A stretch of 64,000 nucleotides of DNA from Haliscomenobacter sp. (GTDB lineage Bacteria; Bacteroidota; Bacteroidia; Chitinophagales; Saprospiraceae). Of the stretch, positions 259 to 35,715 are shown piece by piece. The position numbers and the translations under genes are program-made. The stretch lies in contig NZ_CBDDBS010000003.1 of the NCBI RefSeq assembly GCF_965225875.1, positions 2,320,701-2,384,700 on the forward strand, written 5' to 3'. Below the pieces are notes generated by a model. That model had not been told where the DNA came from, did not search any database, and saw only the letters and a list, made by a program, of their open reading frames with translations. Each line of letters starts with the position of its first letter. Positions within the stretch are counted from its first letter, which is position 1.

Positions 259-372
259 TTTTTCACCACCTTAGAAACTTTAGGCACTTAAGACACACCT
301 TAGTTACTAAGTACATTGTTTCATATGCTTAGGTGTAACTTAAGTGCCTCAGGTTTCTGAGGTGGTGAAAAA
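259..372. repeat. Palindromic element H: 45-bp inverted arms containing ~9-nt CAC(C/T)T(T/A)AG units
   Basis: Arms 259-303 and 328-372 match at 39/45. Termini are TTTTTCACCAC...GTGGTGAAAAA. It fills the araB-araD gap. Confidence 0.85.
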
Positions 373-374
373 AA

Positions 375-2039
375 TTACTTCTTTTCCACAAAATCCCCGA
401 ATCGGCCATACTCAGCGTACAGTTTTTCATACAGTGCTGCATTGGCCGGAATGGGATGGTAAATTTTATCAAAACCATTGCCCATTACCTGCATGGCACT
501 CGCCACATCGGGGTATACCCCTGCGGCTACGGCGGCATACATGGCTGCGCCCAAAGCGGGAGCTTGTTCCGAGCGGGCGATTTTAATGGGGCGGTTCAGT
601 ACATCGGCCAGGGTTTGCATGACCAGGTCCGATTTTTTGGCTACACCACCCATGCCTACCACGGCTTTGATGGGAATGCCTTCAGCTTCAAAGCGGTCGA
701 CAATTTTTTTGGAGCCAAAACAAATCGCTTCGACCAGGGCCTTGAAGATCGCGGGGGCATCCGAGCCCATGTTCAAACCCATGATGGCGCCCTTCAGGCT
801 TTGATCTGCATCCGGGGTACGGCGACCATTGACCCAGTCCAGGGCGACGATCCCGGTTTGGGCGACGGGGATTTGGGCGGCAGCTGCGCTAAGTTGGGCG
901 ATGATTTTGTCTTCCATTTCGTCCAGAAGCGCCGTTTTGGTGGCTTCATCCAGCAACTGGCTTTGTGGCAGCAGTTGTTGCAATGGCCAGGTAATGACTT
1001 GTTTGAACCAGGCCAGTAAGTCGCCAAAAGCAGACTGACCAGCTTCCAGTCCCATCATACCGGGTACGATGGAACCATCCACCTGACCACAGATGCCGTG
1101 GACGAGTTTGTCTTGTACTTCATCTAGTGGCGCTACCAACATGTCACAAGTGGAAGTGCCCATTACTTTGATGAGGGTATAGGCTTCGGCTTCGCCGCCT
1201 ACTGCTCCAGCGTGGGCATCAAAGGTACCTACGCTCACTACCACGCCTTCGTGTAAGCCCAGGCGTTGCGCCCATTCGGCGGAGAGATTACCCGCAGCTT
1301 CATCAGCGGTATAGGTATCCTGGTAGAGGCGATCGCGCAGACCCGCGAGTTTGGGTTCGAGGTGGGTTAAAAAGTCCTCGGATGGCAAACCATCCCAGGA
1401 TTCGTGCCACATGGCTTTGTGCCCGGCAGCACAGCGGCTGCGTTTGGTGCTCAGGGCATCATCGCCTCCGATGAGCAGGTGGGTGATCCAGTCGCAGTGC
1501 TCCATCCAGGAATAGGCGGCTTGTTGTACGGCTTCGTCCTGGCGGATGGTATGGGTGATTTTGGCCCAAAACCATTCGGAAGAATAAATACCCCCTTCGT
1601 ACATGGTGTAGTCGATGCCACCCCAAGCACGAGCTTTGTGGTTGATTTCTTCGGCTTCGGCCAGAGCGGTATGGTCTTTCCAAAGGATGAACATGCCGTT
1701 GGGATTTTCGGCAAATTCGGGCAGGAGGGCCAAAGGTGTGCCCGTTTTATCTACCGCAACTGGTGTTGAGCCAGTGGTGTCAACGGTGATGCCAACAACG
1801 AACTTGGGATCCAAACCCGGCAATTGCTTCAAGGTGCGGACGATGGCGTCTTCCAGACTTTCTACATAATCGAGGGGATGCTGGCGAAACTGGTTTTGGG
1901 CAGGCTTACAGTACAAACCTTTTTTCCAGCGTGGGTAGTAGGTGACGGCACTGGCCAATTCGGCACCGTTAGCGGTATCAACCAGCACTGCGCGGACCGA
2001 ATCGGTGCCAAAATCAGCGCCGAGGACGTATCGATTCAT
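375..2039 (-). CDS. araB: Ribulokinase (FGGY carbohydrate kinase)
   Basis: 554 aa. N-terminal GADFGTDSVR phosphate loop, DTTGSTP, WKDHTA, DWVNGRRTP; adjacent to araD. Confidence 0.93.
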   Translation of the reverse strand: MNRYVLGADFGTDSVRAVLVDTANGAELASAVTYYPRWKKGLYCKPAQNQFRQHPLDYVESLEDAIVRTLKQLPGLDPKFVVGITVDTTGSTPVAVDKTGTPLALLPEFAENPNGMFILWKDHTALAEAEEINHKARAWGGIDYTMYEGGIYSSEWFWAKITHTIRQDEAVQQAAYSWMEHCDWITHLLIGGDDALSTKRSRCAAGHKAMWHESWDGLPSEDFLTHLEPKLAGLRDRLYQDTYTADEAAGNLSAEWAQRLGLHEGVVVSVGTFDAHAGAVGGEAEAYTLIKVMGTSTCDMLVAPLDEVQDKLVHGICGQVDGSIVPGMMGLEAGQSAFGDLLAWFKQVITWPLQQLLPQSQLLDEATKTALLDEMEDKIIAQLSAAAAQIPVAQTGIVALDWVNGRRTPDADQSLKGAIMGLNMGSDAPAIFKALVEAICFGSKKIVDRFEAEGIPIKAVVGMGGVAKKSDLVMQTLADVLNRPIKIARSEQAPALGAAMYAAVAAGVYPDVASAMQVMGNGFDKIYHPIPANAALYEKLYAEYGRFGDFVEKK

Positions 2040-2062
2040 GTCAACAGTTTTGTTCTTGCGAT

Positions 2063-2087
2063 AATAAATGTAAAAGTAACAATTATT
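2063..2087. promoter_or_regulatory. Putative NrtR/AraR-type operator upstream of araB
   Basis: Imperfect palindrome AATAAATGTAAAAGTAACAATTATT with a GT-N7-AC core, 24 bp upstream of the araB start codon. Confidence 0.45.
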
Positions 2088-2214
2088 GTTGCTTGTGCAA
2101 ATTTGGCGGCTATTTTTTATCTGGTTCGGGTCTGCAAGGTAAAAAGCCGCTCGGACATCGTGACTTTTTTATGGCCTTAAGCGAGAATTTGAAGCTATTC
2201 AAATGGAATCCCGC

Positions 2215-2222
2215 TAACTTTG
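2215..2222 (+). promoter_or_regulatory. Bacteroidota sigma70 -7 element for queE
   Basis: TAACTTTG matches TAnnTTTG, 23 bp before the ATG at 2246. Confidence 0.6.
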
Positions 2223-2245
2223 CGCCTTGTAATTGGAGCCGAACC

Positions 2246-2941
2246 ATGAAAAAGAAGCAGACTTACAAAGTCAAAGAAATATTTTACACCCTGCAAGGGG
2301 AAGGTGCCCAGGCGGGTCGCCCGGCGGTATTTTGCCGTTTTTCGGGCTGCAACCTCTGGTCGGGCCGTGAAGAAGACCGCGCCAAGGCGATTTGCCAGTT
2401 TTGTGATACCGATTTTTGGGGTATGGACGGCGAGAATGGAGGGAAGTACAACGCGGAGGAGTTGGCGGATATGGTGATTGGGTTGTGGCCGGGGGGGAGT
2501 GAAAAGCGAAAAGTGAAAAGTGAAAAGCAAGCGGGGCATATCTCGGATTTGGAGGGTAAACCTTATGTGGTGTGTACAGGGGGTGAGCCGCTGCTGCAAT
2601 TGGATGAGGAGCTGATTGCAGCTTTTCATGCACGCGGGCTGGAGGTGGCGGTGGAAACAAATGGCACCGTGGCTGCTCCGGCGGGGTTGGATTGGATTTG
2701 TATGAGCCCCAAAGCAAATACCGAGTTGCTCATTCAAAAGGGGCATGAATTGAAACTGGTGTACCCGCAGCCTGGGGCTGAACCTGAGCGGTATGAGCAC
2801 CTGGATTTTGACAATTTTTACTTACAGCCGATGGATGGGCCGTTGGGGCAACAAAATACCAAGCTGACCTTGGAGTATTGTATGAAGCATCCGAAGTGGA
2901 AGTTGAGTTTGCAGACGCATAAGATTTTGGGGATTGCGTGA
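2246..2941 (+). CDS. queE: 7-carboxy-7-deazaguanine synthase (radical SAM, CX14CX2C type)
   Basis: KEIFYTLQGEG, CNLWSGREEDRAKAICQFC (CX14CX2C), TGGEP, ETNG, C-terminal QTHK. Start moved to ATG 2246 because the promoter box lies inside the longer track ORF. Confidence 0.93.
   Translation: MKKKQTYKVKEIFYTLQGEGAQAGRPAVFCRFSGCNLWSGREEDRAKAICQFCDTDFWGMDGENGGKYNAEELADMVIGLWPGGSEKRKVKSEKQAGHISDLEGKPYVVCTGGEPLLQLDEELIAAFHARGLEVAVETNGTVAAPAGLDWICMSPKANTELLIQKGHELKLVYPQPGAEPERYEHLDFDNFYLQPMDGPLGQQNTKLTLEYCMKHPKWKLSLQTHKILGIA
2499..2526 (+). repeat. Four tandem G(T/C)GAAAA heptamers inside queE, in frame
   Basis: GTGAAAA GCGAAAA GTGAAAA GTGAAAA, encoding part of SEKRKVKSEK. Confidence 0.8.
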
Positions 2942-3129
2942 GGTAAGTAAAAGGTTATTTTGTAATCAATCATCCAATTATAACAATAAACATCAATTCA
3001 AGTCATTGGGCTTGACATAGACTGTGTAATGTTGTAACATTGCAGCTAAGAACTACATGCATCATCTTATCCGGAGTCAATTATTTTGCTTTTTATATAT
3101 TTTCAATACGCTACAACTATAAAAAATCC

Positions 3130-5322: not shown

Positions 5323-5340
5323 AACTAAAACCTGCTTGGC

Positions 5341-16472: not shown

Positions 16473-16513
16473 GGGAGAACACGGAGAATTTTATCCAAAG
16501 CGACATTTCATTG

Positions 16514-16642
16514 GCACAAAGGACACAATGGAAAGCACAGAGGACACAAAGTTAGACGTAGACAAGGATTATTCTTTAGAAATATGACCTCTGTCAACAT
16601 CTAACTTTGTGTCCTTTGTGCATTCCATTGTGTCCTTTGTGC
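16514..16642. repeat. Palindromic element F: 43-bp inverted arms, each a duplicated ~21-nt GCACAAAGGACACAA unit
   Basis: Arms 16514-16556 and 16600-16642 match at 41/43 around a 43-bp spacer, between convergent pyrB and the GxxExxY gene. Confidence 0.9.
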
Positions 16643-16688
16643 TAAAAAATGCTGCTTTTGCTACTACCAAACACATTGTGTTCCTCTT

Positions 16689-17060
16689 TCACAAAATCAC
16701 GCGTCGCACCCCATCCCGAAACAGCAAGGTGTTGAAATTCATCAAAAGCCCCAAATTACAATCTGCCAACCGCAAATAAGTCAACAGTTGCGCCAAATGC
16801 ACATCGGTCAGGGATTCAACGGCCTTCAATTCTATGATCAACTTTTCCTCGACCACTAAATCAGCCCGATAGCCTACCTCAAGTTTCACCTCGTTGTAAA
16901 TCAAGGGAATCGCCTTTTGCTTCTCCACCTTGAGCCCCAATTGCTTCACCTCATAAGCTAAGCACTCCAGATACGCATTTTCCAACAATCCTGGCCCCAG
17001 GGCCTTGTGTACCTTCAAACCACACCCAATGGCCAATCTGGCCAGTTCATTCTCTGACAT
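16689..17060 (-). CDS. GxxExxY protein (PD-(D/E)XK nuclease superfamily)
   Basis: 123 aa with GPGLLENAY (GxxExxY), YRADLVV...IIELK (D...ExK) and GLLMNF. Confidence 0.92.
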   Translation of the reverse strand: MSENELARLAIGCGLKVHKALGPGLLENAYLECLAYEVKQLGLKVEKQKAIPLIYNEVKLEVGYRADLVVEEKLIIELKAVESLTDVHLAQLLTYLRLADCNLGLLMNFNTLLFRDGVRRVIL

Positions 17061-20540: not shown

Positions 20541-20631
20541 AGTTGAGGAGTTGAGAAGTTGAGGAGTTGAGGCTGCCGCGTGCGACCCACTCCTCAACTT
20601 CTCAACTCCTCAACTCCTCAACTTTCTCAAC
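20541..20631. repeat. Palindromic element A: AGTTGAG(G/A) octamer arms, truncated GCTGCCGC core
   Basis: Four octamers (20541-20572) face four inverted octamers (20592-20623), 30/32 match. It fills the whole intergenic gap up to the next ATG. Confidence 0.9.
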
Positions 20632-22611
20632 ATGAAATATTTTATCCAAACCGGCTTACTTTTAGCTGGTCTGCTTATCATACAGCTGTTTACCAGTTTT
20701 AGCTGGAGCGTAATTCCGCCGGCCAAAACACCTACGGAAGACGATTATTACAAAATCATCACCCTCCCCACTACCGAAGGAATGCTCCTGGAGGTGGGTG
20801 GGATAACCACTTTGCAAGACGGTCGCCTGGCCCTTTGTACCCGCCGTGGAGATGTATACTTGGTAGAAAACCCGGAAATGACCAACGGGACTTTGCCTCG
20901 TTATAAACTTTTCGCCTCCGGATTGCACGAACCATTGGGACTTGCTTCCAAAGACAATGCCCTCTACGCCGCCCAACGGGGTGAACTCACCAAGTTGATG
21001 GATACCAATGGCGACGACGTAGCCGATGTGTACGAAACCGTATACGCCTGGCCTGTTTCCGGCCACTATCACGAGTATTCTTACGGACCAAAATTTGCGC
21101 CCGATGGCAGCATGTTTGTCACTGGCAACGTAGCATTTGGTGACCAGGAATGGTGGCGGGGTGAAAGTCGGGTCTTTGGCCGCGGCTGGACCATGCGCAT
21201 TACCCCCGATGGCAAAATGGAGCCCTGGGCAACCGGGATGCGTTCCCCTTGCGGTTTGGGCATGATCGATGGTGAGTTGTTTTACGACGACAACCAGGGC
21301 GATTACATGGGCTCCGGGGGTATCTGGCACGTTAAAAAAGGCGCCTTCACCGGTCACCCCGCTGGTTTGGTATGGACCGATAAAATTGCCAACTCTCCGG
21401 TAAAAATGACCGCTGATCAGTTCAATGCGGTGGTCGATCCCCGAAAAGTTAAAAACTCAACTGGCGGGTACGAAAAACCCGAAAACATCGCCACCGAAAC
21501 CAACCCAAACACCCTTTTTGCCGTAAAAAGTAAATTGCCGGAAGTAACCTTACCTGCGGTTTGGTTGCCGCACGGGATTTTGGGCATTTCCAATTCTGAA
21601 ATTTTGCCCGATCAAACCAAAGGTGGATTTGGACCTTTTGCCGGTCAGGTTTTTGTAGGGGACCAGGGCCAAAGTCGCGTGATGCGCGTGGTGCTGGAAA
21701 AAGTGAAGGGTGAATACCAAGGGGTGGCCTTTGATTTCCGCAGCGGCTTCCAATCGGGAATCCTGCGCATGACCTGGGGTCACGATGGTTCATTGTACGT
21801 AGGTGAAACCAATCGCGGTTGGGGTTCAGCTGGAACGGCCACTTCTGGCTTGCAACGCCTGGCCTGGACAGGTAAAGTGCCGATGGAAATGAAAACGGTT
21901 CGTGCGATGCCTGATGGATTTGAGATTGAGTTCACCTTGCCCGTTGACAAAGCCAGCGCCGAAAATCTCGCTTCCTATTCCGGCAAAAACTTCATCTACA
22001 AATACCACCCAGTATACGGCAGCCCGCCCATCAGCGATACGCCGCTCGGCATCAAAGGGGTGAAAGTATCCGAAGATGGTCTGAAAGTGCGTTTGGTGAT
22101 CGACAACATCAAACAATACTACTTGCACGAAATCAAGGTGGATGGGATTCGTTCGCGTGATGGTTTACCCGTTTTGCACCCAACTGCCTACTACACCCTC
22201 AACAACATTCCAGACGGAGCTAAATTGAGCATGGCAGAAGTAAGTACCAAAAGAATGGAAGCCACGCCAGAAAAGGTGCTTGAAGAGGTGAAAGTTAAAG
22301 TACCCAAGGCCAAAAAGGGCAAAGAAACGGTAGAAGCCAAGGCACCTACTTACGATAAGGTACAACCCTTGTTGGCCAAGTGGACTTGTTTGGGTTGCCA
22401 CAACACCAACACCCGGCAGGTTGGCCCTTCTTTTATCGATATCGCCAAGCGCAAGTACAGCAACGAGCGCATCGTAGAATTGATTCACAAACCTGAGCCT
22501 AAAAACTGGCCCGAATACGCTACCGAAATGGCACCGATGTCTCAGGTACCGAAGGCGGATGCTTTGAAAATGGCGGCATGGATTAATTCTTTGCGGCAGG
22601 AAACACCTTAA
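20632..22611 (+). CDS. Glucose/sorbosone dehydrogenase-like beta-propeller with C-terminal class I cytochrome c
   Basis: Propeller motifs GLHEPLGL, GMRSPCG, YVGETNRGWG. Heme motif CLGCH, VGPSF and a distal Met region EMAPM. Confidence 0.72.
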   Translation: MKYFIQTGLLLAGLLIIQLFTSFSWSVIPPAKTPTEDDYYKIITLPTTEGMLLEVGGITTLQDGRLALCTRRGDVYLVENPEMTNGTLPRYKLFASGLHEPLGLASKDNALYAAQRGELTKLMDTNGDDVADVYETVYAWPVSGHYHEYSYGPKFAPDGSMFVTGNVAFGDQEWWRGESRVFGRGWTMRITPDGKMEPWATGMRSPCGLGMIDGELFYDDNQGDYMGSGGIWHVKKGAFTGHPAGLVWTDKIANSPVKMTADQFNAVVDPRKVKNSTGGYEKPENIATETNPNTLFAVKSKLPEVTLPAVWLPHGILGISNSEILPDQTKGGFGPFAGQVFVGDQGQSRVMRVVLEKVKGEYQGVAFDFRSGFQSGILRMTWGHDGSLYVGETNRGWGSAGTATSGLQRLAWTGKVPMEMKTVRAMPDGFEIEFTLPVDKASAENLASYSGKNFIYKYHPVYGSPPISDTPLGIKGVKVSEDGLKVRLVIDNIKQYYLHEIKVDGIRSRDGLPVLHPTAYYTLNNIPDGAKLSMAEVSTKRMEATPEKVLEEVKVKVPKAKKGKETVEAKAPTYDKVQPLLAKWTCLGCHNTNTRQVGPSFIDIAKRKYSNERIVELIHKPEPKNWPEYATEMAPMSQVPKADALKMAAWINSLRQETP

Positions 22612-22613: not shown

Positions 22614-22707
22614 AAAGATGAAAGATGAGAGATGCTACCGCAGAGACTTTGACAAGGTCATTGTCAAAAACGCTGCGGTAGCATCTCTCATCTTTCATCT
22701 CTCATCT
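22614..22707. repeat. Palindromic element D: A(A/G)AGATG heptamer arms, GCTACCGC...GCGGTAGC core, inner TTTGACAA hairpin
   Basis: Arms 22614-22643 and 22673-22702 match at 29/30. Inner hairpin TTTGACAA-GGTCA-TTGTCAAA at 22648-22668. Confidence 0.9.
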
Positions 22708-23745
22708 CTACTTCCCGCCCGTATACATCTTACAATCCACTCTGAATTCAATAAAGCGCTGATTGTTGGTTTCCAGAATTTCAGTGATTTTCAAACCTGG
22801 ATCTACAATTCCTCCCAGGTAAAAGTTTCTTCCACAGTAGTTGTGCAAATCCACCATCGGTAGCTTCATGTCATTCACATAGTAGATTTGTGAAGCGCCT
22901 GGCGCCAGGGTTTTAGTGTTGGAAATTCGTCCACCTATCACCAGTTTGTCTTCGGGGAACTGCCCAGCAACAGCTAACGGCGCATAGGCCATTGGTGCAG
23001 CGGTATTGGACGAGGTGATGATGTCCACCATATAGCCATTCGCAGGATCAGTATCCGTACCAACAGCAGGGCCAGTACCAATGTTTTTTACCTCAATTTT
23101 GAAGTCAGAAAAAGGCAAACCAGGGCCACCTACGGGATTGGCCAGGGCCATGTAGGTAATCACGAGATCAGGGCGAGGTGCGGTAGTTGAACCACTGCAA
23201 TCCAGTTTCACCCGAACAAAGCGGGTATTGTCATTTTCATTGGTTTCAGCTACTTTTTTACCGGGGTCGGCAATAGCACCGATGGCCACGTAGCCCAATT
23301 GGCAAGGTTTAGCAATTACTTTGGGCATTGGGAAACTTTCCAGGTAGGTGTCTTCCTGACCAGGAGCCAAAGTTTTGGTGTTGCTGTAGCGACCGCCGAT
23401 CACCAGCATGTCTTCCTGGTATTCGTAGGGGTTAGGTACTACTGCAAAGGCGATTGGTGCACTGGCATCGGTTGACAAAACCAGGTCAACCATATAGCCT
23501 TTGGCGGGGTCATCCAGGGTGCCGATGGCTTTGGCAGAGCCGATGTTTTTTACGGTTACTTTGCAATTGACCGTTTCACCTGGCACGTACACCGGTTTTT
23601 CTGGAACAATATTGGTAATGACCAGATTGGGGGCCGCAGCGGTTAACGCAGAAGGATTGACCACTAATGGGTTTTGAGCGGATGCCAAAATTGTGACCAA
23701 AGAGGCTACAAAAGTGAAAAGTGCGTTGAAGCTTAACTTTTTCAT
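22708..23745 (-). CDS. Exported protein with two tandem CARDB-like domains
   Basis: Signal peptide MKKLSFNALFTFVASLVTILASAQ (ATG 23745). Two repeats of P(N/D)LVIT...VKNIG...DPG.K..E..E.(D/N)N. No T9SS CTD. Confidence 0.78.
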   Translation of the reverse strand: MKKLSFNALFTFVASLVTILASAQNPLVVNPSALTAAAPNLVITNIVPEKPVYVPGETVNCKVTVKNIGSAKAIGTLDDPAKGYMVDLVLSTDASAPIAFAVVPNPYEYQEDMLVIGGRYSNTKTLAPGQEDTYLESFPMPKVIAKPCQLGYVAIGAIADPGKKVAETNENDNTRFVRVKLDCSGSTTAPRPDLVITYMALANPVGGPGLPFSDFKIEVKNIGTGPAVGTDTDPANGYMVDIITSSNTAAPMAYAPLAVAGQFPEDKLVIGGRISNTKTLAPGASQIYYVNDMKLPMVDLHNYCGRNFYLGGIVDPGLKITEILETNNQRFIEFRVDCKMYTGGK

Positions 23746-23874
23746 TGGGATGTTTTTATCAAGGTTAAAGATGTTTTGATTAAAGACCTTACATCCCAAT
23801 GTGTCAAACGCAGTTTGTTCCGTTCCACTTTTTTTTATTTTTTTGTAACCATTTAGCAGCCGCCTGCGGCGGAA

Positions 23875-23960
23875 TTTTTCACCACAAAGGCACAAAGACA
23901 CAAAGACATTAAGCTCTAAAATGTTGTGTCTTTGTGCCTTTGTGCCTTTGTGGTGAAAAA
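23875..23960. repeat. Palindromic element E: CACAAAG(G/A) octamer arms with TTTTTCACCAC termini
   Basis: Arms 23875-23908 and 23927-23960 match at 33/34. Termini identical to element H. Confidence 0.9.
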
Positions 23961-24021
23961 AATTGAATGTGAAATCCACCGCAGGTGGATGGGCGCTAAA
24001 TAGTTATATTTTTTTAACTGC

Positions 24022-26832: not shown

Positions 26833-26847
26833 GGCGAATTGGCAATT

Positions 26848-28548: not shown

Positions 28549-28833
28549 TCAAAAGCCAAACGCATCGATTAAACCTTTCATGACACAAAGAGCGCCAAGG
28601 GTAGTTAACACATACATCGGTACAATAAATGAACGGTCATCAGATTGAAAAAGCAAAAATTGAATCATAAAACTCAGGCCCATAATCCCTACGCCGACGG
28701 CCATCCAAGTCAGGCCCCGTTGGAAGAGGCGGAGGTTTTTTTCTTTGCTTAGTGCATCCAATTCTGGTGGACTCGAATCCATGGAGCCATCATTGGGCCC
28801 GTAGTTTTGATCTTGAGGTGTCATTGGTTCCAT
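28549..28833 (-). CDS. Small hypothetical membrane protein (2 TM)
   Basis: 94 aa with two hydrophobic segments; occupies an otherwise empty gap. Confidence 0.6.
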   Translation of the reverse strand: MEPMTPQDQNYGPNDGSMDSSPPELDALSKEKNLRLFQRGLTWMAVGVGIMGLSFMIQFLLFQSDDRSFIVPMYVLTTLGALCVMKGLIDAFGF

Positions 28834-28939
28834 TTTCTACCTATTTAGATTGTTTTAATAAAAGCAAGATAATCAAAATTTAAATTGGAAATTGAAATAA
28901 ATGCAATAAACTAAATGGCTATTGTGCCTAATTCTACTT

Positions 28940-30049
28940 TCATCGTTCAATACCTTCCACCTTCCCACCTTCTACAAAAAACCGCCGATAATCTACCCCA
29001 AACTGCTCCACAATCTCCGCAATCCTCGTCTCATGCGTATCCGTGATAAAAATCTGCCCAAACTGCCCTTCGGTGAGCAGGCGGATCAGGTGGGTGACCC
29101 GCTGGGCATCCAGTTTGTCAAACAAGTCATCAAGGAGTAAAATTGGCGATACGCCCTTGTTTTGGCGCAACATCTCGTATTGCGCCAACTTAAGCGCCAG
29201 CAAAAAGGATTTTAACTGCCCTTGCGAGCCGTATTTTTTCAGTGGATGCTCACCCAGGCTAAAAACCAGGTCATCGCGGTGTACCCCCTTGGTGGTGCGT
29301 TGCAGGGCCAGGTCCTTTTGCCGACTTTGTTTCAAGAGGTCTTCCAGGTCGTTTTCCAGGAGTTGTGACTCGTAAGTCAATTGCACAGCCTCCTTCCGGC
29401 CGGTGATGTATTGGTGGGTCGATTGAAAAATGGCGGTAAATTTTTGCGTAAACACTGCCCTTTGTTCCAAAACGTACAAAGCCGGGTCAATCAACTGCTC
29501 ATCGTACACATCCAACAAGCTCATGCTCCCGCCGCTGCGTTCGGCCAGGCTTTTCAGCAGGGCGTTGCGTTGCTGCAACACCTTATTATAAGTAATCAGT
29601 TCGTACAAATAACGCTGATCAAGTTGGGAGAGGGTATTGTCCAAAAAACGCCGCCGCTCTTCACTGCCTTCGCGGATGAGTTGAATATCGTCAGGGCCGA
29701 TAAAAACCACGGGCAGGAGGCCGATGTGTTCAGCCAGTTTGGAATAAGCCACATCATTGCGTTCGAGTTCCTTGAGTTTGCGTGGCATCACCTTGGCCAC
29801 GATTTTTTCTTTTTTTTCCTGCAAAATAAAATGGCCTTCCAGGCGGAAGAAATTTTCATCGTGCCGGGCGATGGCATTGTCGGCCAGGTTGAAGTGGCTT
29901 TTGGCCATACACAAATAATAAATGGCGTCGAGCAAGTTGGTTTTGCCCATACCATTGTTGCCCACCAGGCAATTCAAGCGGGTGGAAAAGTCAAGCTTTT
30001 GATTTTCGTAATTTTTAAAATTCGCTAAAGCAATGCGTTCGAGGTACAT
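28940..30049 (-). CDS. recF: DNA replication and repair protein RecF
   Basis: Walker A GNNGMGKTN, EERRRFLD, GSQGQ, LLLDD. Confidence 0.95.
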   Translation of the reverse strand: MYLERIALANFKNYENQKLDFSTRLNCLVGNNGMGKTNLLDAIYYLCMAKSHFNLADNAIARHDENFFRLEGHFILQEKKEKIVAKVMPRKLKELERNDVAYSKLAEHIGLLPVVFIGPDDIQLIREGSEERRRFLDNTLSQLDQRYLYELITYNKVLQQRNALLKSLAERSGGSMSLLDVYDEQLIDPALYVLEQRAVFTQKFTAIFQSTHQYITGRKEAVQLTYESQLLENDLEDLLKQSRQKDLALQRTTKGVHRDDLVFSLGEHPLKKYGSQGQLKSFLLALKLAQYEMLRQNKGVSPILLLDDLFDKLDAQRVTHLIRLLTEGQFGQIFITDTHETRIAEIVEQFGVDYRRFFVEGGKVEGIER

Positions 30050-30062
30050 GAAGCGTCAATTG

Positions 30063-30139
30063 AGCAATCAGCTATGAGCTATCAGCAATCAGCATTCAGA
30101 GATCGCCTGGAAGCTGATTGCTGAATGCTGATTGCTGAT
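30063..30139. repeat. Palindromic element G: AGC(A/T)AT(C/G) heptamer arms
   Basis: Five heptamers face four inverted ones, with a perfect 19-bp inverted repeat (30081-30099 / 30121-30139). It starts 14 bp upstream of the recF start codon. Confidence 0.88.
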
Positions 30140-30207
30140 CAACAAAATAGCTTTTCGGGCGTTGAAGGTAAAAATAAAAATCTGCCAGACACTTTTGTCG
30201 GAAGATA

Positions 30208-30215
30208 TATATTTG
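30208..30215 (+). promoter_or_regulatory. -7 promoter element, probably for pdhA
   Basis: TATATTTG in the recF/pdhA divergent region. Confidence 0.5.
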
Positions 30216-30329
30216 CCTTATCTTTAGCTCGACTATTCAACAAACATAGCGAAATTTCGCTAAGAGTAAGTTTAAAAGGCAGGTTTTGAGCATGTCTAAT
30301 TTTAAACCACTCCTAAACATACAGTGCAC

Positions 30330-31367
30330 ATGGGTTCGGTTGTAGAAAAGAAAGCATCAGCCAAAAAAAGCAGCAACAAGATCACTTACAGCAAAGAGCA
30401 GTACCTCTATTGGTATGAATTGATGCTGCGCATCCGCCGTTTTGAAGAACGTGCGCTGATGATGTATGGACAGCAAAAGATTCGCGGTTTCTGTCACGTT
30501 TACATTGGTCAGGAGGCCGTAGCTGCGGGTATTGAGTCGGCGATCACCAAACAGGATGGCATCGTAACAGCCTATCGCCAGCACGGGATTGCGTTGGCCA
30601 GAGGGGTAAGCTCTCGGCAGGCTATGGCCGAGTTGTACGGCAAAGCAACGGGTATCGTGAAAGGTAAAGGTGGTTCTATGCACTTTTTCGATGCTGGCAA
30701 TAAGTATTTTGGTGGAAATGGTATCGTTGGTGCTCAAATTCCAATCGGAACGGGCATCGGTTTTGCTGAAAAATACAAAGGCACCAAAAATTTCTGCGTG
30801 ACCATGTTCGGCGACGGAGCTTCCCGCCAGGGAGCCCTGTACGAGTCTTTCAACATGGCCATGACCTGGAAGTTGCCCGTTTTGTACATCGTGGAAAACA
30901 ACGGTTACGCCATGGGTACATCCGTTGAGCGTACTTCCAATGTAGAAGAACTGTGGAAGATTGGTTTGAGCTTTGAAATGCCCAGCGAATCGGTGGATGG
31001 CATGAGCCCAGAATCGGTACACGAAGCCATCTCACGCGCGGCTGAGCACATACGTGCAGGAAATGGTCCCTACTTCCTGGAAATCCGTACTTACCGCTAC
31101 AAAGGTCACTCGGTATCCGACCCTGCCAAGTACCGCACCAAAGAAGAGGTACAAGCTTACCAGGATCGTGACCCCATCAAGGTGACTGAAGAAAAAATCC
31201 TGAGCGAAAAAATTGCTACGGAAGCAGAGATTCAAGCCATTAAGGACAAAATCAAGGCAGAGATCGAGGATTGTGTACAATTCGCTGAAAACTCACCTTA
31301 TCCAGACGCTTCGGAGCTTTATACCGACAACTACACAGAATCTGACTACCCTTACATCAATTATTAA
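30330..31367 (+). CDS. pdhA: Pyruvate dehydrogenase E1 alpha subunit
   Basis: GFCHVYIGQEA, GKGGSMH, TPP motif GDGA...ENN, TYRYKGHS. Confidence 0.95.
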   Translation: MGSVVEKKASAKKSSNKITYSKEQYLYWYELMLRIRRFEERALMMYGQQKIRGFCHVYIGQEAVAAGIESAITKQDGIVTAYRQHGIALARGVSSRQAMAELYGKATGIVKGKGGSMHFFDAGNKYFGGNGIVGAQIPIGTGIGFAEKYKGTKNFCVTMFGDGASRQGALYESFNMAMTWKLPVLYIVENNGYAMGTSVERTSNVEELWKIGLSFEMPSESVDGMSPESVHEAISRAAEHIRAGNGPYFLEIRTYRYKGHSVSDPAKYRTKEEVQAYQDRDPIKVTEEKILSEKIATEAEIQAIKDKIKAEIEDCVQFAENSPYPDASELYTDNYTESDYPYINY

Positions 31368-31402
31368 ACCAGCGCTAAGGGCTCAAATTCAAAATAATAG
31401 AC

Positions 31403-31442
31403 AAATACGGCGACAGCTAAAAAGCTACCGCCGTATTTTTTT
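31403..31442 (+). terminator. Intrinsic terminator after pdhA
   Basis: AAATACGGCG / CGCCGTATTT stem followed by a T-run. Confidence 0.75.
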
Positions 31443-31554
31443 GTCTTAAATAGGGGGGGAAACAAAACTTTATTTATTTTTGCGTTCCTAATTGGCAAAT
31501 CACACATCAGTTGTGACCTGCCAATTAAATATAACTAGCTAACAAAGACAGAAA

Positions 31555-32274
31555 ATGGCAAAAGGAAGACAGGTGCGCAGGGGTGCTGCTCCTAAGGCTG
31601 CGAATCGGCCAGAAGATGAAGTTTTGGTGGATATTGTAGAGGTTCGCGATCGCGCACAGGACACGTTGAATCGTTTTCGTAAACCTTTGATGATTGCAGG
31701 TGCTGCTGTAGCAGTGCTCATAATAGGTTTGATCGCTTGGAAATTGTATGTAGGCTCTCAGCAAAAAGAAGCTGTTGAGCAAATGCGCCAGGCCGAACGT
31801 TTGTTCGAACGCGATTCGTTCGCTACTGCAATGTTGAAAACCCTGCCTGGTGGCTTCAAAGGGTTCCCTCAAATCATTGAAGATTATCCAGGTACACCCG
31901 CAGCAAATCTGGCCAACTATTACGCCGGCGTTTGTTTGTTGAACCTGGGCAAATACGACGCTGCCATCAGCTACCTCAAGGACTTTAGCCCTAAAGGCAG
32001 TGTAATGCCCATCATGAAAAATGGTGCCTTGGGCGATGCTTATTCTGAAATCAAGGATTTCGCCAGTGCCAAAAGCTACTACAAAAAAGCAGTAAGTGGT
32101 AAGGCCAACGAACTCCTGACTCCATTTTACCTCAAGCGTTTGGCCATGCTGGCGCAAAAAGAAAATGACATCGCAGCTGCCCGCGAATACTACCAAGAGT
32201 TGAAAGATGAATATCCAAGTGCCCCTGAAGGCCAGGATGCTGAAAAATATTTGATCTTCTTGGAAGGAAAATAA
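31555..32274 (+). CDS. Membrane-anchored tetratricopeptide repeat protein (YfgM-like)
   Basis: Single TM followed by TPR helices (ANLANYYAGVCLLNLG, GALGDAYSE). TATTTTTG box at 31475-31482. Confidence 0.82.
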   Translation: MAKGRQVRRGAAPKAANRPEDEVLVDIVEVRDRAQDTLNRFRKPLMIAGAAVAVLIIGLIAWKLYVGSQQKEAVEQMRQAERLFERDSFATAMLKTLPGGFKGFPQIIEDYPGTPAANLANYYAGVCLLNLGKYDAAISYLKDFSPKGSVMPIMKNGALGDAYSEIKDFASAKSYYKKAVSGKANELLTPFYLKRLAMLAQKENDIAAAREYYQELKDEYPSAPEGQDAEKYLIFLEGK

Positions 32275-32300
32275 TCTTTTCCAAGGGTCACTTTGTTTGG

Positions 32301-32341
32301 AAAAAGGTAAGAAGGCATTGGTGGCTTTCTTACCTTTTTTT
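32301..32341 (+). terminator. Intrinsic terminator after the TPR gene
   Basis: AAAAAGGTAAGAAGG / CTTTCTTACCTTTTT stem plus T-run. Confidence 0.7.
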
Positions 32342-32349
32342 GTTAAGAT

Positions 32350-32459
32350 GTTGAGGAGGTTGAGAAGTTGAGAAGTTGAGGCTACCGCAAACGGTCGCTG
32401 AGCGAAGTCGAAGTGTCGCTCGCGGCAGCCTCAACTTCTCAACTTCTCAACTTTTCAAC
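32350..32459. repeat. Palindromic element B: AGTTGAG(A/G) octamer arms, GCTACCGC...GCGGCAGC core, nested GTCGCTGAGCGAAGTCGAAG motif
   Basis: Octamer runs flank the 8-bp core halves at 32381-32388 and 32422-32429, with a 33-nt spacer. Confidence 0.9.
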
Positions 32460-32474
32460 CCAAAACCACAATAC

Positions 32475-32993
32475 ATGGCTAGCGCCCTCAAAAATCTTTC
32501 CCACTACGACGAAGATTCCCTGCCATCTGCTGCTGACTTGCGCTTTGGTATCGCAGTAGCCGATTGGAATGCCAAAATTACCCATGCTTTGTACCAGGGC
32601 TGCCTCGATACTTTGCTCAAACATGGAGCCAAGGAAGAAAACATCCATATGGTACAAGTGCCCGGTTCCTTTGAATTGCCTTCCGCGGCCCGTTTGTTGG
32701 CTGGTGCCCACAAACTGGATGCCATTGTGGCCATTGGTTGTGTCATCAAAGGAGAAACCAACCACAACGAGTACATCAACAACAGTGTGGCAATGGGCTT
32801 GACCAACTTGAGCATTGCCACCAATATTCCCTGTATTTTCGGTGTACTTACCCCCAACGACGAGCAACAGGCCCTTGACCGGGCTGGTGGCATACATGGC
32901 AATAAAGGTGTGGAAGCGGGTGCCACCGCCATCCGCATGGCCGCCCTTAAAAAGCAACTGCAACAAGGAGAAAAAAGTAAAATTGGGTTTTAA
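32475..32993 (+). CDS. ribH: 6,7-dimethyl-8-ribityllumazine synthase
   Basis: VPGSFELP, GCVIKGETNH, CIFGVLT, GNKGVEAG. ATG 32475; the track start lies inside repeat B. Confidence 0.95.
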   Translation: MASALKNLSHYDEDSLPSAADLRFGIAVADWNAKITHALYQGCLDTLLKHGAKEENIHMVQVPGSFELPSAARLLAGAHKLDAIVAIGCVIKGETNHNEYINNSVAMGLTNLSIATNIPCIFGVLTPNDEQQALDRAGGIHGNKGVEAGATAIRMAALKKQLQQGEKSKIGF

Positions 32994-32999
32994 ATTACA

Positions 33000-33027
33000 G
33001 TAGAGACGGGATGCGTCGCGTCTCTAC
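33000..33027. repeat. GTAG-type REP-like palindrome
   Basis: GTAGAGACG-GGATGCGTCG-CGTCTCTAC between ribH and ribB. Confidence 0.75.
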
Positions 33028-33044
33028 CGACCATTATATACAAC

Positions 33045-34190
33045 ATGGAAGCTCAGACCATTGAAACCAACATTCAACTCCATACCGTAGAAGAAGCCAT
33101 CGAAGCCATTCGCAAAGGTGAAGTCATCATCGTAGTAGATGATGAAGACCGCGAAAACGAAGGCGATTTCATCTGCGCTGCAGAGACTGTAACCCCCGAA
33201 ATCATCAACTTCATGGCCACTCACGGCCGGGGCTTGATTTGTACCCCGCTGGACGAGCGCCGTGCAGATGAGCTTGACCTCCCAATGATGGTCTCCTCCA
33301 ATACTGCGCTGCACGAAACGGCCTTTACGGTGTCCATCGACCTGATTGGCCACGGCTGCACCACCGGGATTTCTGCCTACGACCGGGCTACGGGTATTCG
33401 TGCTCTGGTGGACCCGAATACCAAAGCTAAGGATTACGCCCGTCCAGGACACATTTTCCCGCTTAGAGCCAAACAAGGCGGGGTGTTGCGCCGTACCGGG
33501 CATACCGAAGCAGCGATCGATCTGGCTCGCATGGCCGGCCTGTACCCGGCAGGCGTATTGGTAGAAGTGTTAAACGAAGATGGGACGATGGCTCGTTTGC
33601 CTGATTTGTATAAAATTGCCCAGCGCTTTGGCCTCAAAATCATTTCCATCGATGATTTGGTTGCTTACCGCATGCAAACCGAACGTTTGGTCAAACGGGT
33701 CACCTCGGTACAATTGCCAACCCGATTCGGAGAATTTGAAGTGATTGCTTATGAACAAATCCCTGGCGGGGACGTCCATTTGGCCTTCAAATATGGTGAA
33801 TGGAATGAAGATGAATCTATCCTAGTACGCGTCCATTCCTCTTCTGAAGCTGGCGACATCATTGGTAACTTGTTTGAAGAACAGGGGCTTCATCACCACC
33901 AGGCCATTCAAGCTATTCAAAAGGAAGGTAAAGGAGTGGTACTGTTTATGCGGCAATCAGAAAAGGGAGATGCAGCTTTGTTGGCTGCTTTGCAACAGTT
34001 ACAACAACAACGCGAGCAAGGTAAGGAAATGAAAATCCGCAACGAAATGACCCAACGCGATTTTGGCGTCGGCGCCCAAATCCTGCGCGACCTTGGCATT
34101 TGTAAATTGCGTTTGTTGACCAATCATCCCCGCCGCAGGGTAGGTCTGATTGGATATGGGTTGGAAATTGTGGAGAATGTGCCGTTTTGA
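33045..34190 (+). CDS. ribB: 3,4-dihydroxy-2-butanone-4-phosphate synthase fused to a degenerate GTP cyclohydrolase II domain (RibBX-type)
   Basis: [18 protein letters not shown] and GHTEAA are intact. The GCH II region reads [11 protein letters not shown] and lacks the Zn-binding cysteines. Confidence 0.92.
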
Positions 34191-34223
34191 GCTTAGGGAA
34201 AGTTGGAGGAGGAGATGAATAAT

Positions 34224-34258
34224 ACAACTTTGTGTCCACAAAAACGGCACAAAGTTGT
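34224..34258. terminator. Hairpin between convergent ribB and hlyD (possible bidirectional terminator / REP-like)
   Basis: Perfect 11-bp stem ACAACTTTGTG / CACAAAGTTGT. Confidence 0.55.
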
Positions 34259-34286
34259 GTCTCTTTTATTAGAGAATCACTGGGAA

Positions 34287-35588
34287 TCAATAGCTCCGAT
34301 AGCCCCGGATGCCCGAAAAAATTCGTTCAATAAACCGGCGCTCCTCGGTAATGATGCGACCTTTCCCATACAATTCCTCATCACTGGGCACCAGCTTCCC
34401 GGCCGTAGTTACCATTTTATTGGGGAAAATTACCTCAACGGCCACTTCCGATTTTTCGCCATCGTCACGGGGGGATAAGGCTTTCCAGGCTACTATCCCC
34501 TCCAGGACACCAAACTCCTGAAAGTCCAGGCTTTCCAAACGGACCACTACTTTTTGATTGAGTTTAACCCGGCCTGAGCGATTGAAAGGAATGAACATTT
34601 TGCCGATTATCTCTTTATTTTTGTTGGGAATGACCACCATCAATTGTTCATCTTTGTACACAAAGCTGTTCTCCGCTACATTTCTACCCACAATTTGAAC
34701 CATGCCGCTGCGTGGAGATTCAATGAGGTGGCGCTGCTTCCAGGTGTTCACACCTTCCCGCAAGTGGTTGAACGACTCTCTTAGCACATCTGAAGCAAAA
34801 TTGGTTTCATTGTCGGCACCACTTTCCAGGCTGCGCACCTTGATTCGTAATGCAGAAAGCTCTGATTCCCGATCGCGGATTTCGGTTTCGGTACGAATCA
34901 ATTCCTTGTTGAATTCCATAATCCGGCTCTGTACCCGATTGACATCATCCTGGGAAGCTTGATTCACCGAGACGAGGTGTTCCTTGTTTTTTCGTTCTTG
35001 TTCGGCTACGGCTATCTGCTCCTGAATCTGCCTGCGCATTTCTTTTTGGTAGTCGAGACTCCGATCCAGGCGACTAATTCTGCTCTGGGAAGAGCGCAAG
35101 TCAGAACTGGAAAGGTCTTTGTACAGCTCAGAGTTGTACTTGAGTTGTACGTCCTGGAAGTCAAATAAATCCGCTTGCAATTCCCCCAGTACCAGATTAC
35201 TGGGGACCTTGAACTTCAACAAGTCTTCATCCCGCAAACTGTGTAGTGCAGTGATGTAGTCATCAAGCGTCAATACATGGCGGAAATTAGCGGTGCTGCG
35301 AAAGGCAATCAGGGCTTGTCCCGAATCCACCTGGCTATTGTTTTTCACCACCACTTCTTCAATTCGATTGGCGTTGGGGGCAGTGATGCGCACGGGTGGA
35401 TCTTTGGAAACCAAACGTATATCCGCCTCTACTATATCAGGGTATTTTACCAAAAAAGACAGCCACATCAAAACGACAAACAGGGCCAAGGCGGTCAAGC
35501 TACCCCAACGCACCATCCAGGAGGGCGGTGTCCCCAGAATTTCCTGTACTTCCTCGCTGCGGATTTCAATGTCTTCTAATTCTTTCAT
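34287..35588 (-). CDS. HlyD family secretion adaptor
   Basis: RSEEVQEILGTPPSW N-terminus, one TM, long coiled coil, IESPRSG, GRIITEERRFIERIF. Confidence 0.9.
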   Translation of the reverse strand: MKELEDIEIRSEEVQEILGTPPSWMVRWGSLTALALFVVLMWLSFLVKYPDIVEADIRLVSKDPPVRITAPNANRIEEVVVKNNSQVDSGQALIAFRSTANFRHVLTLDDYITALHSLRDEDLLKFKVPSNLVLGELQADLFDFQDVQLKYNSELYKDLSSSDLRSSQSRISRLDRSLDYQKEMRRQIQEQIAVAEQERKNKEHLVSVNQASQDDVNRVQSRIMEFNKELIRTETEIRDRESELSALRIKVRSLESGADNETNFASDVLRESFNHLREGVNTWKQRHLIESPRSGMVQIVGRNVAENSFVYKDEQLMVVIPNKNKEIIGKMFIPFNRSGRVKLNQKVVVRLESLDFQEFGVLEGIVAWKALSPRDDGEKSEVAVEVIFPNKMVTTAGKLVPSDEELYGKGRIITEERRFIERIFSGIRGYRSY

Positions 35589-35594
35589 TTTATT

Positions 35595-35715
35595 GGTTTA
35601 GGAGGTTGAGGAAGGTTGAGGAAGGTTGAGGCTGCCGCGAGCTATTTTGAAAATGTCTTTGTCAAAATCGCTGGCGGCAGCCTCAACCTCCCTAAACCAT
35701 CTCAACCTTCTCAAC
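35595..35715. repeat. Palindromic element C: GGTTGAGGAA 9-10-mer arms, GCTGCCGC...GCGGCAGC core, inner TTTGAAAA/TTGTCAAA hairpin
   Basis: Core halves at 35631-35638 and 35674-35681 with a 35-nt spacer. Fills the gap between the ABC transporter and hlyD. Confidence 0.88.

Follow-up and report, generated by a model that had tools for sequence, protein, structure and literature searches.

The DNA analysed here (the window) is a 64,000-nt stretch of a Haliscomenobacter sp. genome (G000; 8.37 Mb, 47% GC; window at C3:2320701-2384700) that contains eight intergenic palindromes whose arms are runs of short tandem units. They belong to an abundant class of gene-end hairpins of modular build, which turns over between species, undergoes matched changes in the two arms and has its units homogenised within each genome. 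The original prediction, made from the window sequence, listed the eight palindromes, and an inverted-repeat scan recovered all of them, with starts at 259, 16511, 20541, 22616, 23875, 30063, 32358 and 35592 and with arms of 27-54 nt that are 82-100% complementary. Tandem Repeats Finder (TRF) detected short units within the arms: period 7 at 22614 and 30063, period 8 at 20541, 23883 and 32342, and period 9-10 at 16605 and 35595. As a correction, the 21-nt unit at 16514 represents a two-unit super-repeat of CACAAAG-type units (GCACAAAGGACACAA..). Common termini (TTTTTCACCAC/GTGGTGAAAAA ends at 259 and 23875) and common cores (a CTRCCGC..GCGGYAG clamp in 20541, 22614, 32350 and 35595) were likewise found as predicted. 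Folded as single-stranded DNA, each of the eight forms one long hairpin (-25.6 to -51.4 kcal/mol, z -5.75 to -14.11), and for each element 0 of 200 dinucleotide shuffles folded as well.

Genome-wide, elements were grouped into Louvain communities based on shared 9-mers, because single-linkage clustering put 941 of 989 elements in one cluster and was too coarse. Three communities are referred to below as family A (community 0; GTTGAGRA arms, 211 copies), family B (community 1; CTTAGGTG-type arms, 167 copies) and family C (community 2; CACAAAGR arms, 126 copies). For comparisons we used congener loci L001-L007, which correspond to the window, and 841 kb aligned to the congener G004 (~88% identity).

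The first element (242..372) is an inside-out family-B element (45-nt arms, 87% complementary; z -9.08). A small GC hairpin at 243-253 (CAGC-TTC-GCTG) is followed by the palindrome proper (259-372), which has TTTTTCACCACC at its outer ends and ~9-nt units of the CTTAGGTG type, unlike most family-B copies in the genome, which usually have GGTGGTGAAAA at the inner end. Its two neighbours are minus-strand genes; it takes up all of the gap that separates them and extends to 2 nt from the stop codon of an FGGY kinase gene (375-2039). The second (16511..16645) is a family-C palindrome with GCACAAAGGACACAA-type arms around a TTAGACGTAGAC..GTCAACATCTAA centre (54-nt arms, 91%; z -14.11), located 44 nt past the 3' end of a PDDEXK_3 (GxxExxY) gene (16689-17060, minus strand); it is whole in L003 and L004 and reduced to the left arm and centre in L005. 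The third (20541..20631), a family-A palindrome with (AGTTGAGR)4 arms and a short CTGCCGCGTGCGACC centre (z -9.20), occupies the whole gap between a DUF1080/PA14 gene, whose stop lies 3 nt upstream, and the next gene, whose ATG is at 20632. At this site L001 and L002 carry altered units, L003-L006 are empty with a 15-20-nt spacer and L007 holds another element. The fourth (22614..22709) lies between convergent genes and joins AAAGATG/AGAGATG heptamer arms (40 nt, 93%; z -14.09) to the clamp and centre of family A (GCTACCGCAGAG-ACTTTGACAAGG..TTGTCAAAAAC-GCTGCGGTAGC); it is common to L001-L005, whose alignments pass through it.

The fifth element (23847..24010) is a nested composite insertion (34-nt arms, 97%; z -10.60). 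Its outermost layer is a short inverted repeat (CCATTTAGC../..GCTAAATAG), the middle layer consists of two small GC hairpins (23860-23872 and 23976-23988), and the inner palindrome (23875-23960) has the form TTTTTCACCAC..(CACAAAGR)n..GTGGTGAAAAA. Like the element at 259, it is built inside-out, with T-run/CACCAC ends pointing outward and small GC hairpins alongside. L001 and L002 lack the entire ~160-nt composite; their flanks share an overlap of 10-12 T-rich nucleotides. The sixth (30063..30139), with AGCWATC/GCTGATT heptamer arms (z -5.75) and 14 relatives genome-wide, lies 14 nt from the start codon of a recF-like (SMC_N/AAA) gene (28940-30049, minus strand), in a gap shared with a divergent E1 dehydrogenase gene (30324-31367, plus strand). 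The seventh (32342..32460), just upstream of ribH, has family-A arms and a CTACCGC..GCGGCAG clamp (z -10.90) around a reverse-oriented copy (CGCTGAGCGAAGTCGAAGT, 32396-32414) of the apex module described below. The eighth (35592..35715), a family-A element with 10-nt GGTTGAGGAA units, the clamp and a TTTTGAAAA..TTGTCAAAATC centre (z -11.63), fills the gap between a C39-ABC transporter gene and an HlyD gene.

The density of such elements in the window (9 in 64 kb) is ordinary for this genome. A genome-wide scan (10-nt seed, arms of at least 22 nt, at least 80% complementarity, span <260 nt) yielded 989 merged long inverted repeats, one per 8.5 kb, compared with ~2 per 3 Mb in shuffled sequence. 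On contig C3 there were 488 pairs, whereas each of two third-order Markov simulations produced 2, which excludes a chance origin. The arms of the genome-wide set span 22-54 nt and the loop median is ~20-30 nt. This genome, like most of its closest relatives, holds about a thousand gene-end hairpins, and in about half of them the arms consist of 7-10-base tandem units. TRF (period 6-12, at least 2.8 copies) reported 1348 arrays with 391 distinct canonical units and a modal period of 8 nt, and 1039 of these arrays (77%) have an inverted partner array within ~200 nt. The partnered fraction is 175 of 178 and 150 of 154 for the two commonest units, at least 90% for most major unit types and at least 79% for all. 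Thus, a short tandem array here is nearly always half of a palindrome, and head-to-tail arrays standing alone, of the TAACTGA or short tandemly repeated repetitive (STRR) type, are not the rule among the 1348. Arms hold 2-7 units, most often four. Their polarity is strict: a CTCAAC array follows within 200 nt after 169 of 194 GTTGAG arrays, and the reverse order was not seen beside any unpaired array. Among the few unpaired arrays is a lone three-unit CTCAAC(TC) array (C3:1671691-1671713) inside a 362-aa open reading frame (ORF; C3:1671160-1672248), where it is apparently coding. Paired arrays reach 124/Mb in this genome and 137/Mb in 1.13 Mb of the congener G004; syntenic loci of other Bacteroidota, 1.23 Mb in total, have 11/Mb.

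Besides families A-C, tandem arms are built of GATGAR/AGATGAR (community 3, 60 copies), AATGACG (about 20 of the 54 members of community 4), GTGAAAA (about 17-25, most of the 29 members of community 10) and CAGCWAT (about 14). They coexist with ordinary families resembling repetitive extragenic palindromes (REPs) and their inverted doublets (REPINs), namely communities 5, 6, 8, 9, 11, 13, 15 and 17, and with an ordinary MITE (miniature inverted-repeat transposable element), community 14. The arm unit is a conserved hexamer plus a 1-4-nt spacer (GTTGAG+RR, TGATGA+R, GTGAAAA, CACAAAG+R, TTAGGTG+..). Four GYGAAAA heptamers, the unit of the GTGAAAA arm family, also occur in the window at 2498-2528, inside the ORF 2093-2941.

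The original prediction of a class assembled from interchangeable parts holds for the genome as a whole, since both the clamp and the apex module are reused with different arm units. From the outside in, an element consists of the arms, often a GC clamp (GGCTRCCGC), and, innermost, an asymmetric centre or else an apex hairpin of 20-26 nt in which one base is bulged. The clamp together with its centre (GGCTRCCGC..TTAGACAAGG..) was found within at least four arm types; with the usual centre, GGCTACCGCRGCGAYTTAGACAAGG..CCTTGTCAAAATCGCYGCGGTAGCC, it is present in 165 of 200 GTTGAG-arm and 21 of 79 GATGAR-arm elements, and in one element each with AATGACG and GTGAAAA arms. The second centre is an asymmetric 20-nt apex module, ACTTCGRCTNCGCTCAGTG, from which the stem goes on as GGCACT/AGTGaCC with one bulged base. 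It forms the tip of ~55 palindromes, whose arms are of at least eight types; GTTGAG arms (clamped or not), GTTGAAAA, AATGACG, GTTCCA and non-repetitive unique sequence are among them. Depending on pattern stringency, 51-65 loci have the 20-nt module, while the 14-nt arm-clamp junction of family A gives 227 matches in ~200 copies. The family-B centre is of another kind: a small GC hairpin, with a loop of the UUCG/GAAG type, that stands between an A-run and a T-run. Terminal inverted repeats are conserved in family A (GTTGAG units and clamp), and the arms around the apex module differ completely between copies. It is plausible that the clamp and the apex module are the putative conserved recognition core of the original prediction. 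At two congener loci (G009, L175 60-165; G001, L180 85-170) the apex module lies inside arms made of its own inverted copies, with three nested in G009, as if modules enter one another's tips or become palindromic in place.

The elements are strongly associated with gene ends. Overall, 97% of them are intergenic; 31% lie between convergent genes, which account for 16% of gaps, and only 8% between divergent genes, which account for 17% of gaps or 26% of intergenic length. The convergent share rises to 43-49% in families B, C and GATGAR. Family A is found mostly (79%) between co-directional genes, in gaps with a median of 137 nt that the element nearly fills. In the communities that hold TGA-unit arms (GTTGAG, GATGAR, GTGAAAA and AATGACG), the median distance from stop codon to array is 4, 2, -2 and 3 nt, respectively. 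TAA, TGA and TAG precede these arrays at background ratios; therefore, the stop is usually the gene's own. Read from outside, TGA-containing units provide stop codons in all three frames on both sides, and family C, the units of which lack stops, has a median distance of 47 nt to the stop codon. No target motif was found. Outward-facing TGA units would let an element abut or slightly enter the 3' end of a gene harmlessly, and these all-frame stops, combined with selection against promoter disruption, may explain where the elements are located.

Are the elements fixed at the same positions in relatives? They are not: there are empty sites (20541 and 23875), lineage-specific insertions and gaps that hold different elements in different species, in agreement with the mobility originally suggested. 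In aligned neighbourhoods, 19 of 24 family-A, 10 of 18 family-B and 2 of 16 family-C elements were found at the same site in G004. The 841-kb alignment contains 59 clean indels, nine of them of family A (five only in G000 and four only in G004). The arms of elements cleanly inserted into 0-6-nt gaps are not present at the empty site. Two gaps illustrate the extent of replacement. Gap C2:2225781 shows six states across congeners: a short gap without a tandem-arm element (G001), a longer and different spacer, also without one (G009), a direct GGTTCC array (G008 and G004), a GGTTCC-arm palindrome (G011), a GGTTCG-arm palindrome (G002 and G006) and an apex-module palindrome (G000); a separate MITE insertion interrupts the direct array in G004. 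Gap C2:2920889 shows five: empty (G009), an apex-module palindrome (G000 and G001), a REPIN-like element (G004), a GGTTCC-arm palindrome (G011) and a GGTTCG-arm palindrome (G002). GGTTCG arms recur at three examined gaps in G002 and GGTTCC arms at two in G011. The MITE of community 14 (~120 nt, GGGGCGATAAAAAAATAAGTG..GGATTAGATAAG..CACTTATTTTTGCCCC) is itself very active between G000 and G004 (for example, L088 12988-13104, L091 2751-2870 and L097 3255-3373), and one copy sits in the centre of a family-C palindrome.

Remodelling of the arms preserves the hairpin, as the original prediction held, through mirrored gains and losses of units, mirrored deletion and matched substitutions. The most conspicuous change is in unit length. 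Family-A spacing is 8 nt in 79% of cases in G000 and 9-10 nt in 89% in G004, mostly 9 nt in ten G002 loci and mixed in G001. Orthologous family-A loci differ in the same way (8-nt spacing in 93 of 103 cases in G000, 9-10-nt spacing in 72 of 81 in G004), so that unit length is a property of the genome and not of the locus. Since flank boundaries coincide in the aligned pairs, the sites look inherited and the arms rewritten. Centres are exchanged as well: under constant arms and clamp, C1:186780 has a TTGAC-type centre in G000 and the apex module in G004, the centres at C1:106899 and C2:3125592 differ likewise, and C1:73436 holds a REPIN-like insert in G004. At C1:176426 one 8-nt unit is missing from both arms in G004; at C2:2920889 a 4-nt deletion is mirrored in both arms (G001 versus G000); at C1:594625 G000 and G004 have the apex module in opposite orientations, and several other arm differences are each matched in the partner arm.

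Substitutions follow the same pattern. Orthologous pairs show 52 complementary double, 13 non-complementary double and 170 single changes, whereas a rate of 0.098 per site predicts ~5 complementary and ~10 non-complementary double changes; complementary changes are thus tenfold over expectation, although ambiguous register in tandem-arm alignments may inflate the mirrored counts of family A and, much less, those of family B. Family B on its own gives 16 complementary double, 3 non-complementary and 28 single changes within orthologous pairs. Among family-B paralogues, the two arms of one element match at 86% compared with 72% between elements, and of the rare variants 53 have a mirrored counterpart and 71 lack one, against an expectation of a few per cent mirrored. 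Unit lengths other than 8 nt are mirrored layer by layer in 24 of 48 cases against a background of 19%.

The family-A form is restricted to a part of the genus, and a similar architecture occurs at about one-tenth of the density elsewhere in the phylum. The arm-clamp junction (GTTGAGGCTRCCGC), with its 227 matches here, has 107-223 matches in seven other congeners (G002 included), 0-1 in four further congeners and 0-1 in 300 genomes of other genera of the order. Tandem-arm palindromes of outgroups have ACGCAAAG arms in L020 and ATTGAAAG arms in L054, so the architecture is not limited to Haliscomenobacter, only far denser there. Isolated palindromes lie at L020 9520-9592, L013 15690-15820 and L054 6275-6475 (metagenome-assembled genomes of unclassified Bacteroidia, Roseivirgaceae and Ohtaekwangia), and CGCAAAG units, close to those of the CACAAAG family, occur among them. 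The apex module (21 nt) has a different distribution: three genomes from another class of the phylum, which represent two genera of one family, carry 58, 90 and 12 copies, seven of the other 147 sampled genomes carry 1-5 (mostly 1-2) and the rest none. In the high-copy genomes G325 and G330 it forms a 26-nt hairpin (GGGCACTTCGACTCCGCTCAGTGACC), which matches the apex module of G000 in nearly every letter, beside ordinary genes and flanked by copy-specific A-rich/T-rich inverted sequence of 3-11 nt (loci L181-L192, e.g. L184 101-126). Copies lie, for instance, on either side of an MFS transporter gene. The best explanation for the patchy occurrence of one identical 21-26-mer is that something self-copying was transferred horizontally.

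The consistent location at gene ends raises the question of whether the hairpins act in RNA. They might be functional RNA elements, such as (bidirectional) terminators, 3'-end protectors or intercistronic insulators and processing sites, with selection on RNA folding keeping the arms complementary and mobility being secondary. The enrichment between convergent and rarity between divergent genes fit this reading, as do the family-B centre, laid out as a bidirectional intrinsic terminator, the apex module in distant genomes, a GC hairpin between A-rich/T-rich flanks by ordinary genes, and the fact that the same gaps seem always to hold some hairpin, whatever its sequence. However, if stems were kept by selection on transcripts, transition mismatches on the sense strand should favour those compatible with G-U pairing. 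This was not seen: arm mismatches in elements between co-directional genes comprise 422 of the G-T type and 418 of the A-C type. No tandem-arm family deviates in this test, and only the REP-like community 8 is marginal (13 versus 4, p = 0.049). Centre orientation shows no clear bias relative to gene direction in family A (29 versus 20) or family C (15 versus 11), and the apex module is weakly biased (12 versus 26, p = 0.03, uncorrected). Relative to GC skew, centre orientation is flat or marginal, the replichore test being weak as the genes themselves show no skew bias. RNA-level selection was rejected on these mismatch and orientation tests. Further points against it are that family A, largely confined to close co-directional genes, has no T-run, that stems of 30-54 bp are far beyond the needs of a terminator, that some orthologous gaps in close relatives are empty, and that RNA function leaves species-specific unit length at orthologous loci unexplained. 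We consider it unlikely that RNA function accounts for the class. A known RNA family can also be dismissed, as Rfam gave no match in the elements and its only match in the window is a tmRNA (63688-64000). A secondary role in termination is nevertheless quite possible for some copies, judging by their layout: many family-B copies have a GC hairpin with a T-run at their centre, as 259 and 23875 have alongside them, and these centres and small flanking hairpins look like bidirectional intrinsic terminators.

As for the enzymes that might move the elements, the original prediction named an HUH transposase and a GxxExxY nuclease as candidates and listed four-helix-bundle genes for a co-occurrence test, and none of the three stood up. 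Movement of REP/REPIN-type elements by the REP-associated tyrosine transposase (RAYT; Y1/HUH) genes of the genome would be one explanation. There are clear REPIN-like families in the genome along with eight Y1_Tnp matches, long inverted-repeat hairpins are a hallmark of REPINs (PMC3116915), and the bulged apex hairpin would suit an enzyme acting on single strands. The Y1 genes, however, adjoin other repeat families: five are flanked within 300 nt only by communities 5, 8, 11 or 17, two have no element nearby, and the gene at C1:574333 has community-8 elements closest, at 66 and 112 nt, and two AATGACG-arm palindromes farther off, at 616 and 1154 nt. By inspection of sampled sequences, the GTAG/CGTC end tags are absent from the GTTGAG, GATGAR, GTGAAAA, CACAAAG and TTAGGTG families, whereas communities 9 and 15 carry GTAG..CTAC (PMC3733652). 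In distant module-bearing genomes there is no Y1 gene within 1.5 kb of an apex module and no co-occurrence: G316 has the module and no Y1 gene, G335 five Y1 genes and no module. A RAYT/HUH driver was rejected on these grounds, and we regard it as highly improbable. The window does contain a Y1/IS200-like gene (61434-61886; 150 aa, Pfam Y1_Tnp 1.8e-26), 58 nt upstream of which lies a REP-like doublet of community 17 (61288..61376) with AGCCCTGAAAGGGCG hairpins, a contrast case outside the tandem-arm class. Larger community-17 copies occur elsewhere in the genome, and the gene with its doublet looks like a conventional RAYT-REPIN pair.

The PDDEXK_3 (GxxExxY) and four-helix-bundle candidates were rejected because they have only three and two copies, respectively, against about 500 elements. 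A palindrome lies 56-69 nt downstream of two of the three PDDEXK_3 genes, as it does with many genes. At L003 5650-6470 the PDDEXK_3 gene stands between two complete family-C palindromes; at L005 1590-1690 the gene and the right arm are gone, with the left arm and centre left; and in the window (16511-17060) a palindrome is present only 3' of the gene. Judging from these arrangements, the gene looks like a cassette between direct family-C copies that may be removable by recombination. Autonomous copies were sought as arm pairs of the tandem-arm families enclosing a gene, and there are none: one GTTGAG and one CACAAAG long-range pair survived filtering, each consisting of unrelated neighbours, and this possibility was likewise rejected.

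A dedicated transposase might still be encoded elsewhere, or be rare or lost, with the repeated hexamers serving as its multiple binding sites. The strict polarity of the arms relative to the centre and the presence or absence of insertions between congeners would fit such an enzyme, and a conserved hexamer with a spacer varying across species (8, 9 or 10 nt) is compatible with it without being evidence in itself. There is a precedent in Drosophila, where foldback-type elements have tandem sub-repeats with multiple transposase-binding sites (PMC4079207, PMC3573991, PMC3688188). On the other hand, there is no fixed target-site duplication, no copy with these arms flanks a gene, and at least seven hexamers would need as many binding specificities. 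Moreover, the apex group conserves the loop and not the arms, the opposite of an element defined by terminal inverted repeats. Taken together, these points make transposase-binding arms quite unlikely.

On balance, we lean towards the view that the palindromes are several related families of selfish, non-autonomous foldback-type hairpins that occupy short gene-end gaps in one Haliscomenobacter lineage and are constantly rebuilt at the DNA level. Small hairpin modules would insert preferentially at the tips of existing hairpins and in gene-end gaps, which would produce the nested, mix-and-match architecture. Replication slippage would change the number of units, and arm-to-arm copying would keep the arms complementary and flip the centres, either through recombination or gene conversion between the inverted arms or through repair synthesis templated on the folded hairpin. 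Exchange among the ~200 copies of a family would then homogenise the units within each genome.

Several observations weigh against this interpretation. The insertion step is its weakest link, with no element-encoded or linked enzyme found: no transposase or nuclease was linked to any tandem-arm family. A target-site duplication of fixed length was not found for tandem-arm elements, either at the window loci or among the G004 indels. Family-A flanks overlap by 0, 4, 5 or 10 nt, or a 4-18-nt spacer is replaced; composite-type insertions have flank duplications of ~11 and 23 nt, the latter an imperfect direct repeat at one C/B-type insertion, and two others have none. Given such inconsistent duplications and spacer replacement, classical transposition is not demonstrated. 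In the same comparisons the community-14 MITE shows a regular CTAG/CTAA/TTAG duplication in many events, so the method detects duplications where they are present. Some 'empty' sites hold one unit-like motif (TTGAGGGAGG, AAAGCGACA) and could be deletion scars. Matched arm changes would also result from selection on folded RNA or single-stranded DNA; the G-U test speaks against RNA but is blind to selection acting on both strands. Layer mirroring in family A is strongest by the clamp, weaker outward and moderate past the innermost unit, which gives only partial support to strict layer-by-layer mirroring, as in a nested self-insertion model, and that model was rejected in its strict form. Finally, to the ambiguous alignment register mentioned above should be added the gene set, which consists of crude ORF-based calls (88% coding density).

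The inconsistent flank duplications would also accommodate a route through replication or repair that involves no transposase. In the extreme case there would be no dedicated mobility at all: host template switching, fold-back priming and slippage would regenerate palindromes in place, and sequences would be shared via ectopic gene conversion only. Replacement of a spacer in place of a clean insertion, the missing target duplication, mirrored indels and flipped centres all agree with this, and so do the arms of inverted apex-module copies in G001 and G009 and the gap where two species have a direct GGTTCC array and a third has, correspondingly, a GGTTCC-arm palindrome. However, ~200 copies with the same 14-nt arm-clamp junction and 51-65 loci with the 20-nt module are difficult to obtain in this way, the 58-90 copies of the module in another class require that it was copied to new loci and transferred horizontally, and clean insertions into 0-6-nt gaps carry arms not found at the empty site. 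Regeneration in place as the sole process therefore appears very unlikely.

A more radical form of the foldback-type interpretation, which we put forward tentatively as a possibility, is that these are selfish DNA defined by structure and not by sequence. The small apex hairpin would be the sole conserved part that is recognised; it would enter hairpin tips or gene-end gaps, and the stem would be rebuilt by hairpin-templated synthesis and slippage, whether by a hairpin-specific enzyme or by host replication and repair alone. Because the stem is rebuilt, the arms would be free to drift into new tandem units and still remain complementary. Such a process could yield palindromes with onion-like layers, unit lengths peculiar to each genome, and gaps in which elements turn over again and again.

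Whatever the mechanism, the genus represents a dense natural experiment: each genome holds ~1000 elements, the units are of at least 40 types, and one congener, H. hydrossis DSM 1100, is in culture. Comparisons between its species show directly that change preserves structure, that modules are swapped, that copies are homogenised and that sites are reused. If arms are regenerated from a folded template, compensatory change at the DNA level would mimic selection on RNA structure, which calls for caution in covariation-based RNA discovery. The elements lie between cistrons and at the 3' ends of ~10% of genes and probably affect termination, mRNA stability, assembly and annotation.

How do these elements compare with known systems? 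Bacterial short repeats, including REPs, bacterial interspersed mosaic elements (BIMEs), MITEs and STRRs, are usually described as families with one consensus each, and the way in which REP-like hairpins multiply is unsettled. The BIMEs of enterobacteria are similar in being intergenic mosaics of a few reusable motifs in varied order and copy number, but they consist of alternating REP units and linker motifs and are not single long palindromes with mirrored tandem arms; we know of no nested clamp and apex architecture described for them. Cyanobacterial STRRs are grouped with direct tandem heptamer repeats of the TAACTGA type. Integron attC sites resemble the present elements as imperfect palindromes of 60-140 nt located after ORF stops, with structure conserved over sequence and bulged bases marking the folded strand. 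Their polarity is opposite, however (RYYYAAC in attC, GTT.. by the upstream ORF here), and our elements are dispersed among housekeeping genes and not arranged in cassette arrays. Quasipalindrome correction by template switching (flip-flop or copy correction) generates matched arm changes, mirrored indels and centre inversion without selection; to our knowledge, it is known at single loci and not as the upkeep of a genome-wide repeat class. Foldback-type transposons, to which we return below, have fixed target duplications.

The REP/REPIN-RAYT system shares with our elements abundant, extragenic, non-autonomous gene-end hairpins that evolve within the genome (PMC3116915, PMC3733652), and the REPIN-type arrangement of two inverted copies forming one long hairpin is present here as well. 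The differences lie in arrays of 7-10-nt units in place of one 20-25-nt REP, in exchangeable centres and in the lack of the GTAG/CGTC tag from the sequences inspected. The heptamer TAACTGA forms repeats in Beggiatoaceae, Cyanobacteria and Bacteroidetes, as direct arrays with one indirect among 170 sets (PMC4679880). These too are intergenic repeats of the 7-nt class next to coding regions, with all-frame stops in one orientation and a patchy phylogeny (PMC4679880). They lie mostly just upstream of start codons, whereas 77% of our arrays form inverted pairs, just after stops. The closest architectural match is provided by the foldback-type transposons (Drosophila FB, Galileo and Tetris), with their long inverted repeats of short tandem sub-repeats, variable arm length, little central sequence and dynamic structure (PMC4079207, PMC3573991, PMC3688188). 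Those elements are eukaryotic and kilobase-scale, with a P-superfamily transposase for Galileo; ours are bacterial and 70-200 nt long, and none was found for them. We offer the parallel as an analogy that does not imply homology. A full-text literature search returned no description of bacterial tandem-arm palindromes or of Haliscomenobacter repeats. Arms built of tandem units, clamps and centres that can be exchanged, and a unit length specific to the genome occur together in none of the systems compared.

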